A stretch of DNA of 64,000 bases, taken from positions 26,845 to 90,844 of IMG/VR virus record IMGVR_UViG_3300006871_000008, one strand, 5' to 3'. This document shows, piece after piece, positions 12,726 to 55,248 of this stretch; the stretch's first letter is position 1; every line of letters starts with the position of its first letter. The stretch is from a virus. Made by a program: the position numbers and the translations under genes. The notes beneath the pieces were generated by a model. That model was not told the DNA's origin. It saw only the letters and a program-made list of their open reading frames with translations, and searched no databases.

Positions 12726-12737
12726 TTGTTTCTCCAA

Positions 12738-12811
12738 TCGGGGAAGTCGGACTCGAACCGACGACCTTCGCAGTATCAGTGCGATGCTCTAACCAACTGA
12801 GCTACTCCCCA
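12738..12811 (-). tRNA. tRNA-Ile(GAT), no encoded CCA
   Basis: Cloverleaf; TCGCA-CTGATAC-TGCGA anticodon arm; GGTTCGAGTCC T arm. Confidence 0.92.
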
Positions 12812-12898
12812 ATAAAGTGCCGCCCCGCAAATGCGTGGGCGGCTAAACTGGTTCTTAACGGTTGGCACTCGTAAACCAGACCTTCCAGCAGACCCGTA

Positions 12899-46272: not shown

Positions 46273-47988
46273 TTAGAGGAAAGCTGTAATACTGCGAGCG
46301 GAGGCAACCGCAGCCGCGAGAGGCAAAGCAATCTCGGCATAGGTCTGGGCGTGGGCGTAGTGGTCCGGCCCTGTCTCGACGTAACGGGCAACTACGTTCC
46401 CATCATCGTCCGTTTCATAGCGTCTCGCAGGCGCTTTAATTTGCTCTTTGTACTCGATTGGGGTGTCTTGGGGTAGATCAATTGACCCGTTGTAATACCG
46501 GCCAAGCGTTGCATCCAGCCAACTCGTCCGGTCAACCGTAGCCATTGGCGCTCCGGTTTCTTGCTCGGAGAGGGCAATTTCCTTACCCACAACGCCACGA
46601 CGGTAACGGCAAAGTGTCACGTATCCTGGGAAGCGTCGAGCAAAGCGGCGGGCATCGTTAATGTTGGGGTCGGCATCCAGCACGCAATGCCGCACCTGCC
46701 ATTCCCGCATCAGCCGGTCGAATTGAGGGAAGTCACCCTCAGCAACCTTACCCATCCATAGAACCTTACACTTCGCATTGGCATTCAAATCGTAGCCGAG
46801 CCGGTCATAGGTCCACTCATTTACCACGACATAATGCCATTTACCTTGGTCGATGCCCATTGTTATGAGTCGCTTGCCGCCAACAGCCGGGCGTGCATCA
46901 CTCAATCTATGCGAACTTTTCGCAATAGCCGCCTCAATATGCTCGTCTCGAACCTGGGCATCTGAGGCTAAGTAGGCTTCACCTAGTTTTGAGTTCTTGA
47001 ATTCCTGCATTGCGACTTCTGATCGGAGGCCAAGCAAGTATCGTTCTGCGATTTCTGCCGGGCTGATCGTCGCGCTGTAAAGCTGATTGATATGAAAGCC
47101 ACGATGGTCTGGACTATTGCCACTGGTAGCTTCCCATTGGCCGGGTTGTAAGTAGGCAGCTTTGCCCTCATCAATCCATCCATCCTCGCCAGGAATACGG
47201 CCAGTCTCATGCGTGCTAAGAGTCGTCTTGCACTCATAGCAAAGTAGTCGAGAACGAAACCGATCAGGGTCATTAGGTGTTTCACCGCAAACCTCAAAAC
47301 TCTCCGGCCATTTGAGTTCGATTTTCTTGCCACAGTGCGGGCACGGAAAGAAAAAGTGTTCCTGCGTGCTTCGCTGGTACTGCAAGTCGATTCCAAAGCC
47401 AGGAATCGTTGGGGTCGAGAGCATGAATACATGCTTGTGAATCTGGCCCGATAATCGTTCAAGGGCCAACCCAACTGACTTCTCCCGCATTTCGTCAAAT
47501 TCGTCCAGAATCAACTCTGAGACGGGGATCGACTTCAAGCCTGATTCGCTGTTAGCGCCACGGATGTAAAGAGCCGCCCCGGCAGCCTGCTTCAAGTCGA
47601 TTTTGTTGGTGTCAGAGAACATCCCCGCAAGGTACGGGCTAAGTTCTAATGCACCACCAAAGCGAACCGCTGAGAAGTCGGCGGCATCGGGCACTTTCGT
47701 TGGAAGAACGTACAGCACCGAACGGCGATGTACGTCAAGGGTGAACAATGCTCGATTGATTGCTACTTCTGTGAAGCCTGCCTGTGCCGATTTCTTTGCC
47801 GTCATGTACGGGCAATCGGCGTCGTGAATCTCTCTGCACCACGGATGATACTTGAACGTGTACGGGCCGGGAACAGGCGCACCCATGATTCGCCGTGCTT
47901 GTGCCCATTTGCTGCAACTGGTCAGCGTCTTATTTCGTAAACCAGTAGCGATTGCAAGCCTTATCTCATCAAACAGCTTGGTCGCCAT
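46273..47988 (-). CDS. terL: Terminase large subunit (lambda GpA-like)
   Basis: KSAQAGFTE, LDEFD, STPT, CPHC/CYEC, GFHINQLYS, GIDQG, DHYAHA. Confidence 0.93.
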   Translation of the reverse strand: MATKLFDEIRLAIATGLRNKTLTSCSKWAQARRIMGAPVPGPYTFKYHPWCREIHDADCPYMTAKKSAQAGFTEVAINRALFTLDVHRRSVLYVLPTKVPDAADFSAVRFGGALELSPYLAGMFSDTNKIDLKQAAGAALYIRGANSESGLKSIPVSELILDEFDEMREKSVGLALERLSGQIHKHVFMLSTPTIPGFGIDLQYQRSTQEHFFFPCPHCGKKIELKWPESFEVCGETPNDPDRFRSRLLCYECKTTLSTHETGRIPGEDGWIDEGKAAYLQPGQWEATSGNSPDHRGFHINQLYSATISPAEIAERYLLGLRSEVAMQEFKNSKLGEAYLASDAQVRDEHIEAAIAKSSHRLSDARPAVGGKRLITMGIDQGKWHYVVVNEWTYDRLGYDLNANAKCKVLWMGKVAEGDFPQFDRLMREWQVRHCVLDADPNINDARRFARRFPGYVTLCRYRRGVVGKEIALSEQETGAPMATVDRTSWLDATLGRYYNGSIDLPQDTPIEYKEQIKAPARRYETDDDGNVVARYVETGPDHYAHAQTYAEIALPLAAAVASARSITAFL

Positions 47989-53970: not shown

Positions 53971-53976
53971 TGCAAG

Positions 53977-54048
53977 TGACCCCGAAGGGAATCGAACCCT
54001 CATTCTTCGGTTGAAAGCCGCTAGTCCTAGCCATTAGACGACGGGGCC
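53977..54048 (-). tRNA. tRNA-Glu(TTC), weak anticodon stem
   Basis: GGCCCCG acceptor, CTTTCAA loop, GGTTCGATTCC. Confidence 0.8.
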
Positions 54049-54117
54049 ATTTTAGGCCCGACGTTCCAAGTGAATTCCAATTTTGTCAGCGAATTTCATA
54101 CGTCACCGTCTTTCAAT

Positions 54118-54190
54118 AGCCGCCCGTAGGACTCGAACCTACAACCTGGGGATTACAAATCTCCGGCTCTGCCAATTGAGCTAGGGAGGC
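54118..54190 (-). tRNA. tRNA-Thr(TGT)
   Basis: TAGCTCAATTGGCAGAGC, TTTGTAA loop, GGTTCGAGTCC. Confidence 0.85.
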
Positions 54191-54196
54191 TAAAGG

Positions 54197-54366
54197 AAAC
54201 CCTCTCACCGATTCGCTAGGCGGGTTCGGCACACCTTTGTACGGTTGCATCACTTCCGAGAGGGTTGATCGGCGGGTACTAGCCGCCGAGGGGTCTGATG
54301 CTGCGCATTTTGACCGGGCCTAGATACGGGTCACTGTGCCTTGCAGCCAGGAGAGCCGAACCCGGT
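54197..54366 (-). ncRNA. Unassigned structured RNA with pseudoknots
   Basis: Crossing 10-bp and 9-bp helices plus two hairpins; strand inferred from the neighbouring genes. Confidence 0.6.
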
Positions 54367-54375
54367 ATGTTACGC

Positions 54376-54585
54376 TTACTCGGCGTGGGCGTGGAACAGG
54401 CCAGCCATCGCGGTCTTTGTCAGATAGCGAAGGATGAGGTTCACACCCGAAAGGCCAAGTCCAATCGCGGCCACAAGGTCGGGATTGTTGGTAATCAGGT
54501 TGTGGTCGATGACATACGTGCCAAATCCCGCAATCAGGACAAGGGCGTTGACAATGACCGTCTTAGAAAGCACTAACTTCGGCAT
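54376..54585 (-). CDS. Holin-like two-TM protein
   Basis: SKTVIVNALVLI...GVNLILRYLT. Confidence 0.6.
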   Translation of the reverse strand: MPKLVLSKTVIVNALVLIAGFGTYVIDHNLITNNPDLVAAIGLGLSGVNLILRYLTKTAMAGLFHAHAE

Positions 54586-55114
54586 CTTCGGTTTCTCCCG
54601 CCGTCTTAACGGCATCAATTAGGCGAGTGGCAATGCGTTCCAGCACGTCCTCGCTACCGGGTAATTCTGCGGTTTCCTCAGAGCAGATTTGGACTGCTTC
54701 GGCGGCAAACTGCAACAGAGCAGCCCGATCCACCGTCAAGCCAGCCGACTTTTCAACCTTCACACACTCCGAGACAAGTGACTTTGCCGTGAGCAAAAGG
54801 TTGTTGAATGTATTGATTTTGGACTCAAAACTGCCTTCGCTGGCGTTCATTAAGTCTGCGAATCGTTGGATTGCAGTCCGAATCAACGCAACTTCGGCTC
54901 GAAGGGACAGAATATCCTCGCGGTCGGACATTTGACCGTATAGACCGCGAAGTTCGGCTTGGGCCAAGTCGTACATTCGACGCTCGGCCTTCTGCGCCTT
55001 TGCTCGTCCGCCGTGCCGATTGCACAAATCCGTGCCGGGTACGACGGGATGCGGGCATTGCCCGAATTCGCCGGTACGTTGGCAACGATTGTCGTGGTCA
55101 GCAGGTCGTGGCAT
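54563..55114 (-). CDS. Probable terminase small subunit
   Basis: RC..C..C.RHGG Zn motif followed by LRAEVALIR helices; first gene of the late block. Confidence 0.6.
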   Translation of the reverse strand: MPRPADHDNRCQRTGEFGQCPHPVVPGTDLCNRHGGRAKAQKAERRMYDLAQAELRGLYGQMSDREDILSLRAEVALIRTAIQRFADLMNASEGSFESKINTFNNLLLTAKSLVSECVKVEKSAGLTVDRAALLQFAAEAVQICSEETAELPGSEDVLERIATRLIDAVKTAGETEDAEVSAF

Positions 55115-55248
55115 CGGAAATCCCTTCATAGAGATATATCGGGCAAAACGACCCATTTTGCCAGTAGAAAATGGAAATTTTCGCCAGATTTTTGCAAATC
55201 CAGGCCCAGAAAGGACTTACAATGCCAAAAATTTGTCGATTTTTGGCC

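Follow-up and report, generated by a model that had tools for sequence, protein, structure and literature searches.

The window analysed here, a stretch of 64,000 nt numbered from its first letter, is part of a 90.8-kb IMG/VR virus record. On its minus strand, which is the strand of all neighbouring genes, of both tRNAs and of the element described below, a gap of 184 nt (54192–54375) lies between the stop codon of a gene for a hydrophobic protein and the gene for tRNA-Thr(UGU), which is followed, after a 68-nt spacer, by the gene for tRNA-Glu(UUC). TerL (46273–47988) and the portal protein are encoded ~6 kb downstream of the gap along the direction of transcription, in the packaging and late region. 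The genes that border the gap are the following.

54376–54585, minus strand: upstream gene, defined by its open reading frame and translation, for a small hydrophobic protein of 69 aa, probably a membrane protein; its stop codon TAA (54376–54378) lies just before the element
54117–54191, minus strand: tRNA-Thr (UGU), found by ARAGORN and Rfam (55.3 bits)
53976–54048, minus strand: tRNA-Glu (UUC), second gene of the pair, found by ARAGORN and Rfam

Homologues of the 69-aa protein are encoded at the same position in two short metagenome contigs (L025 and L026), in the phage locus L014 and in 16 IMG/VR loci. Upstream of it (54563–55156, minus strand) is encoded a protein of 197 aa that combines an N-terminal Cys-rich, zinc-ribbon-like segment with a helical body. 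The spacer before tRNA-Glu is unstructured, with a folding z of +0.74.

Four partial relatives of the element, L025, L026 and contigs in the sequencing runs X6 and X7, were recovered from soil metagenomes. The 197-aa protein has 14 relatives (P0001–P0014) in a large protein collection, all of them metagenomic, 64–75% identical and encoded on contigs of up to 55 kb; a profile of this family led to L025 and L026, both from JGI metagenomes and both ending inside the element, and had no match in IMG/VR or in 185,579 genomes. The Logan contig from the soil run X6 is 575 nt long and covers 54118–54652 with 70 substitutions and 14 gapped positions, none of the listed differences falling in the body of tRNA-Thr, and the X7 contig starts at 54352. 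The X6 variant was reconstructed from difference tables in which single-run substitutions are listed up to 54345, a few more being possible in 54346–54375; the table of indels shows no such limit. Beyond these close relatives, a blastn search of 50,697 phage records returned tRNA matches only, 17 TerL-related IMG/VR loci contained no homologue of the element by blastn or nhmmer, and the 16 loci with a homologue of the membrane protein had other hairpins and no homologue of the element. The family is narrow, confined to close relatives among a few soil and rhizosphere phages.

Two side observations concern the tRNA end of the locus. In all four sequencing runs compared with the window many unrelated short contigs match the body of tRNA-Thr alone (window 54120–54190, 80–90% identity, summed depth up to 131), presumably representing tRNA-Thr genes of hosts or of other origin; such matches could mislead habitat or host assignments based on word sharing. 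Between tRNA-Thr and tRNA-Glu (54052–54099, minus strand) there is a micro-ORF of 15 codons (MKFADKIGIHLERRA), which in the loose end of the X6 contig reads MKFTDKIGI, where two of the changes are synonymous and at third positions and one alters an amino acid, a pattern that hints at real translation; the 19 nt from tRNA-Thr to its ATG are replaced in X6.

The original prediction, made from the letters of the window, had described in this gap a pseudoknotted RNA, in which a helix A (54355–54364 with 54221–54230) crosses a helix B (54258–54266 with 54198–54206) in the order A-B-A′-B′. On the sequence evidence assembled here the structure is real but has to be drawn differently. The order shown by the comparison is D1 (optional), P0, P1, P2 enclosing P3, a U-rich tail of 6–7 nt and tRNA-Thr, with the elements listed here from 5′ to 3′.

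54313–54366, minus strand: D1, an optional hairpin, long and irregular, whose 19 pairs fall into 5 blocks, with a GCAA (GNRA) tetraloop at 54341–54344; present in the minimum free energy (MFE) fold of the window and of X6
54296–54301, minus strand: 5′ strand of P0 (GCAUCA), pairing with 54247–54252 over 6 bp
54269–54289, minus strand: P1, a 7-bp hairpin with an invariant 7-nt loop, CUAGUAC
54258–54266, minus strand: 5′ strand of P2 (identical with helix B), forming nine perfect pairs with 54198–54206
54247–54252, minus strand: 3′ strand of P0 (UGAUGC), inside a conserved AGUGAUGCA tract and between the two strands of P2
54207–54230, minus strand: P3, a hairpin GCCGA...UCGGU (54226–54230 with 54207–54211) of the MFE fold, stacked directly on P2
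54198–54206, minus strand: 3′ strand of P2 (identical with B′), pairing with 54258–54266
54192–54197, minus strand: U-rich single-stranded tail UCCUUU, followed by A at 54191, between P2 and the 5′ end of the tRNA; identical in X6

The evidence for selection on this fold comes from changes that preserve pairing. The MFE structure of the window was chosen independently of X6; when the substitutions of X6 are placed on it, four pairs are altered on both sides with no loss of pairing, a number reached in 15 of 20,000 random relocations of the same substitutions (P = 0.00075). In a tool-made alignment of the window with L025 and L026, six further pairs change on both sides with all cells paired, as against 0–1 pairs in controls in which the partner was slid by 1–3 columns. 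The resulting ten pairs are spread over the five helices P0, P1, P2, P3 and D1, in a sample of four partial relatives that is too small for R-scape. Eight MFE pairs are broken in X6; they cluster in three helices (GCGUA/UGCGC, GCA.CC/GG.UGU and the inner stem of P3), and these helices were for that reason dropped from the model. At least seven G.U pairs of the minus strand would turn into C.A mismatches if the plus strand were the RNA, and one shows the opposite relation, a bias which indicates that the RNA is read from the minus strand; the indels of 1, 2 and 3 nt in X6 indicate that the element is not coding.

The individual helices differ in the way they vary. The 7-bp hairpin P1, already recognised in the original prediction, has, in L025 and L026, both partners replaced at four of seven pairs with pairing preserved, and its loop is identical in all four sequences. 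P2 was likewise correctly identified as helix B: in X6 it is kept by two compensatory changes (54263/54201, C-G to A-U; 54261/54203, U-A to C-G), with a C.A mismatch at 54259/54205. P3 reads GUCAA/UUGAU in X6, where 54229/54208 changes from C-G to U-A and a second pair becomes A-U through a 1-nt deletion; in its inner stem, 54220/54216 changes from C-G to U-A in L025 and is disrupted in X6. In P0, the pair 54298/54250 changes from U-A to C-G in L026, the A to G replacement being the sole change in the AGUGAUGCA tract and matched by the partner, and 54296/54252 changes from A-U to G.U in L026 and X6, with all cells paired; the MFE fold of L025 picks P0. D1 changes in X6 at 54356/54329 (G-C to C-G), 54345/54340 (U.G to C-G) and 54348/54336 (G-C to G.U). 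It is present in X6, and its 5′ part is reached by the X7 contig; it is absent from L025 and L026, in which ~66 nt after the stop codon (roughly 54309–54374) are missing and the 3′ part from ~54310 is kept. The element is thus a modular RNA of ~110–175 nt, with a core common to all four relatives and an optional domain. Because the 3′ strand of P0 lies between the strands of P2, which enclose 51 nt including P3, the two helices cross, and from their sequences they would form either an H-type pseudoknot or two alternative folds. Taken together, these comparisons make it very probable that the spacer is a selected, conserved RNA structure.

Helix A, by contrast with helix B, is a feature of the window that relatives do not keep. 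Its ten perfect pairs are present and can be extended to 14 of 16 (54349–54364 with 54221–54236). Among 1000 dinucleotide shuffles of the 184 nt, 13 contain a perfect stem of at least 10 bp and 49 one of at least 9 bp; none contains a 10-bp stem together with a second stem of 9 bp. However, the 5′ strand of helix A is held by D1 and is absent from L025 and L026, and its 3′ strand is used by P3. In X6 the pair 54356/54229 has changed on both sides to C.U, the change at 54356 being compensated by 54329 rather than by 54229, and the two 1-nt insertions and one deletion of the 3′ strand have no listed counterpart in the 5′ strand, so that helix A cannot persist there whatever substitutions occur in 54346–54375. 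With it falls the A-B-A′-B′ pseudoknot as originally drawn. Helix A may be a trace of the origin of D1 or a lineage-specific alternative pairing.

The smaller features proposed along with helix A have fared unevenly. In the nested arm, GCTGC and GCAGC are complementary, with one compensatory change in X6 (U-A to C-G), but the same change, at 54345, is equally explained by the competing pair in D1; TGACC and GGTCA are complementary as described, but two of their five pairs are lost in X6. The contact between the loop CTAGGC and GCCTAG is complementary in the window but is not kept letter for letter in relatives. A different 6-bp complement, GCAUCA with UGAUGC, connects the same two regions (the internal loop of D1 and the loop of P3) in X6; in a control for this contact, with target segments set generously long, 6 bp was reached by 9% and 5% of shuffles. 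The proposed distance of 7 nt to tRNA-Thr agrees with the end of B′, 6–7 nt upstream of the tRNA.

The junction that the element occupies can be compared with that of more distant phages and with the genome's other tRNA gene. Most of the 16 distant relatives have a GC-rich hairpin right after the same membrane-protein gene, and in L033 the gap ends in a canonical terminator with a 15-bp stem and a T-tract, ~15 nt before the next gene. The genome's other tRNA gene, tRNA-Ile (12737–12812), is also preceded by a strong hairpin (12819–12843, minus strand, 7 + 3 pairs), which ends 6–7 nt before the tRNA and is followed by a ACUUUAUU tail (stem and tail together, 12811–12843). The site just downstream of the membrane-protein gene looks like a hot spot for modules of folded RNA.

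Several further observations were made at these junctions. The L033 segment (L033:3170–3390) has a hairpin with an AGC loop as well as the canonical terminator after the membrane-protein gene, and the same junction in L037 (L037:3170–3400) holds a two-hairpin module of ~100 nt that is duplicated in tandem. Around tRNA-Ile, the layout of stem, CUUUA tail and tRNA is the same as at tRNA-Thr, and the 93-nt gap before this tRNA has a folding z of -2.56. L014 (L014:1077–1283, identical with L045), a relative with 52% TerL identity, has in the syntenic gap an ORF of ~68 codons, followed by tRNA-Pro and tRNA-Tyr; it is the only one of the 17 TerL-related loci with tRNAs at the syntenic place, and what precedes them is this small ORF and not the element. 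The presence of tRNA-Pro and tRNA-Tyr in the place of tRNA-Thr and tRNA-Glu indicates that the tRNA cargo at the junction turns over between relatives.

In bacteria, RNase P cleaves at the 5′ ends of tRNAs, and 3′ exonucleases stall at stable stems with short tails. Our leading, though still tentative, proposal for the role of the element is a joint model in which it acts as an operon-junction 3′-end former or protector upstream of tRNA-Thr. Lying at a presumed operon junction within a same-strand block, the element would be co-transcribed with the late genes, and the upstream message would end in the P2/P3 stack with its U-rich tail, through leaky termination and/or because RNase P leaves this end behind. 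Cleavage by RNase P at the 5′ end of tRNA-Thr would free the tRNA and leave an upstream mRNA that ends in P2/P3; the stack would shield this end from 3′-to-5′ exonucleases and would also prevent mispairing between leader and tRNA. Beyond this, the conserved P0/P1 core probably makes some specific contact, either to a protein or through tertiary folding. The RNA may have the role in tRNA processing that the original prediction had suggested. The GC-rich hairpins in relatives, the L033 terminator, the hairpin at tRNA-Ile and the unstructured spacer before tRNA-Glu count in favour of a junction role, whereas the 51 nt enclosed by P2, unlike a canonical terminator, and a simple intrinsic-terminator scan, which calls none at the element, count against it. 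End protection would need no more than a plain hairpin. The invariant P1 loop, the conserved P0 tract and the optional D1 domain, for which this model does not account, point towards some more specific function, and the candidates for it are a stable RNA that acts in trans, an element that regulates read-through and an anticodon-arm mimic.

The first of these candidates, a separate stable small RNA acting in trans, with its 3′ side freed by RNase P, its 5′ side by another cut and the P1 loop as its recognition site, is unlikely, although it fares best among the alternatives. It would account for a 7-nt P1 loop that is invariant on a stem changing at four of seven pairs, for the conserved AGUGAUGCA tract and for the GNRA-capped accessory domain, and its tRNA-adjacent position would be that of other phage non-coding RNAs such as those of T4. 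Against it, no promoter-like or 5′-processing signal was found at the element, none of the sequencing runs listed as matching the element is an RNA run, and the family is confined to close relatives. CUAGUAC and its complement show no enrichment across the genome that would single out a target site, and AGTGATGCA and TACAAAGGT are likewise not enriched; a pattern combining the P1 loop with AGTGRTGC occurs nowhere in IMG/VR and gives two matches in genomes, both by chance.

A regulated read-through element of riboswitch or attenuator type, in which P0 and P2 as exclusive or cooperative folds would tune the continuation of transcription into the tRNAs, strikes us as rather improbable. The two helices cross, each has covariation support, and P2 is followed by a U-rich tract; an alternative partner for the 5′ strand of D1, confined to the window, is the P3 region, through the 14 of 16 pairs of extended helix A. 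Yet relatives do not conserve this pairing, which is the most obvious alternative, no riboswitch family gives a match at E up to 10, no ligand candidate has emerged, and we know of no tRNA genes that are riboswitch targets.

A more speculative version of a specific function, to which we assign a low probability, takes the P0/P1/P2 core as a pseudoknotted ligand- or protein-binding RNA in which the P1 loop would mimic an anticodon arm and D1 would be docked on the P3 loop. The P1 loop (xUxGUAx) resembles an anticodon loop, and its letters C-U-A-G-U-A-C match the anticodon-loop signature of tRNA-Thr (U33, G35, U36, A37), the anticodon loop of the downstream tRNA-Thr gene being U-U-U-G-U-A-A. If this were true, the mimic could be a decoy or operator for threonyl-tRNA synthetase, for a t6A-modifying enzyme or for a host anticodon nuclease, coupled to the delivery of the phage's own tRNA-Thr, and D1 would be an add-on that docks the P3 loop by a 6-bp kissing contact, re-invented with other letters in X6. 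An actual tRNA or tRNA pseudogene within the element was considered separately and rejected: ARAGORN and Rfam at E up to 10 find just the two known tRNAs, and there is no D or T arm.

Two readings deny that an RNA structure is what selection has kept. In the first, which we regard as very unlikely, the gap would be a DNA-level site (pac/cos, promoter/operator or recombination) whose inverted repeats are bound by proteins; the repeats are dense and the element lies ~6 kb upstream of TerL in the packaging/late region, but the stems change sequence and stay complementary, the G.U pairs work only in minus-strand RNA, the 197-aa neighbour gives no TerS signal against Pfam, PHROGs or PDB profiles, no sigma-70-like promoter was found, and the conserved motifs do not recur in the genome. 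The second, an ordinary spacer in which complementarity is due to chance and no structure is under selection, is already disfavoured and carries even less weight: the folding energy of the whole element is unremarkable (z = -1.47), relatives are very few and eight MFE pairs in three helices are broken in X6, but compensatory changes in five helices, an invariant loop on a variable stem and a combination of a 10-bp and a 9-bp stem that no shuffle reproduced all speak against it. The least credible reading is that the transcript is cut next to the tRNA by a ribozyme within it, either HDV-like or of a new class: its pseudoknotted topology and phage-tRNA neighbour recall theta ribozymes (PMC10879173) and an HDV-like layout can be drawn in the window alone (A as P1, B as P2, ACC/GGU as P3, with GCGAAU), but no ribozyme model gives a match at E up to 10, relatives have lost helix A, the P3-like stem and GCGAAU alike, and an HDV-like ribozyme placed here would cut its own 5′ end, far from the tRNA.

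The element therefore matters less than the original prediction had hoped: there is no sign of catalysis, the family comprises a few relatives among soil and rhizosphere phages, and the function is one that we infer from sequence comparison. Unexplained folded RNAs are common next to the tRNA genes of phages, and to our knowledge almost none of these has a known function. Being small and modular, and having a secondary-structure model with a crossing helix and an invariant loop, the present element offers a tractable case, one that may bear on the ways in which phages divide up, and stabilise, their long late transcripts where tRNAs are embedded in them.

Comparison with known families begins with Rfam 15, which at the gathering score matches the two tRNAs only and in a scan at E up to 10 gives nothing credible beyond them (CbSR4 at 13 bits, for instance, is noise); the loci of the relatives have no Rfam match either. 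Of the original suggestion of a novel ribozyme or structural RNA, the second half stands, as a structured RNA with covariation and no match in Rfam 15, and the ribozyme half does not. Two further scans were made on individual motifs. A search of IMG/VR with the helix-A pattern gave six matches, all by chance and within G+C-rich coding DNA, and a K-turn or C/D-box built from GUGAUGC with CUGA was rejected by eye, the GA dinucleotides not being conserved across the four sequences.

HDV-like ribozymes form a nested double pseudoknot in which P1 crosses P2 and a 3-bp P3 with L3 lies between the 5′ strand of P2 and the 3′ strand of P1; they have G1 at the cleavage site and a G.U wobble at the base of P1. 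The likeness to them that had been noted does not hold up in detail. Helix A begins with C-G and not G.U, so there is no G1.U; the P3-like ACC/GGU is deleted in X6 (54243–54245), the GCGAAU tract is kept neither in X6 nor in L025, and models of HDV, CPEB3, drz and related ribozymes in Rfam 15 have no match at E up to 10. The conserved fold leaves only 5 nt between the 5′ strand of P2 and the 3′ strand of P0, too few for P3/L3, and since P3 abuts the 3′ strand of P2 there is no nucleotide at the place of the J4/2 cytosine, the catalytic C at the first position of J4/2 being a criterion for HDV-like ribozymes (PMC10879173). Theta ribozymes are found at the 3′ end of phage tRNAs, with the cleavage site within 5 nt of it (PMC10879173). 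Our element shares with those of gut phages the format of a small pseudoknotted RNA of a tailed phage that adjoins a phage tRNA gene, and with HDV-like ribozymes in general the presence of two crossing helices with hairpins between them; unlike theta ribozymes, it lies upstream of its tRNA, and it is not a member of the HDV-like/theta class.

A second resemblance, to CR-V of RNase P RNA, amounts to a match of 7–8 nt in the GAACCCGCCUA tract that is kept neither in L025, which has CACACCCGUCUGA, nor in X6. Bacterial RNase P RNA is ~330–400 nt long, with conserved regions CR-I to CR-V; the element measures 184 nt, and RNase P RNA models of Rfam 15 do not match it at E up to 10. With intrinsic terminators and intercistronic stabiliser hairpins the element shares a G+C-rich stem, a U-rich tail and a position at a gene junction. 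A canonical intrinsic terminator would be a G+C-rich hairpin with a short loop and a T-tract immediately after it. The element departs from both kinds in the 51-nt interior that P2 closes before UUUCCUUUA (the tail, also given as UUUCCUUU), which has a hairpin of its own and a crossing helix, and in its conserved loops and optional domain.

Other structured RNAs offer a common theme or a working analogy. Phage T4 encodes small stable RNAs beside its tRNA cluster, and GOLLD (RF01998) and ROOL (RF03087) are large ornate phage RNAs of 580–800 nt that often lie near tRNAs. Like these, the element is a structured phage non-coding RNA by tRNA genes and probably co-transcribed with them; GOLLD and ROOL share with it only this theme of phage RNAs beside tRNAs, the element being far smaller (about 110–175 nt against 580–800 nt) and having no match to their models at E up to 10. 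In the eukaryotic nuclear RNA MALAT1, RNase P cuts at the tRNA-like mascRNA and the upstream 3′ end is protected by a triple-helix ENE. The arrangement proposed here, in which a stable fold precedes an RNase P site by a few nucleotides and yields a protected 3′ end, makes this a working analogy only: MALAT1 has no homology to the element, and a weak mascRNA match (22 bits, E 0.098) falls on tRNA-Glu. Viewed against all of these systems, the element is best placed among the structured non-coding RNAs of phage gene or tRNA junctions, as a new one of narrow distribution.
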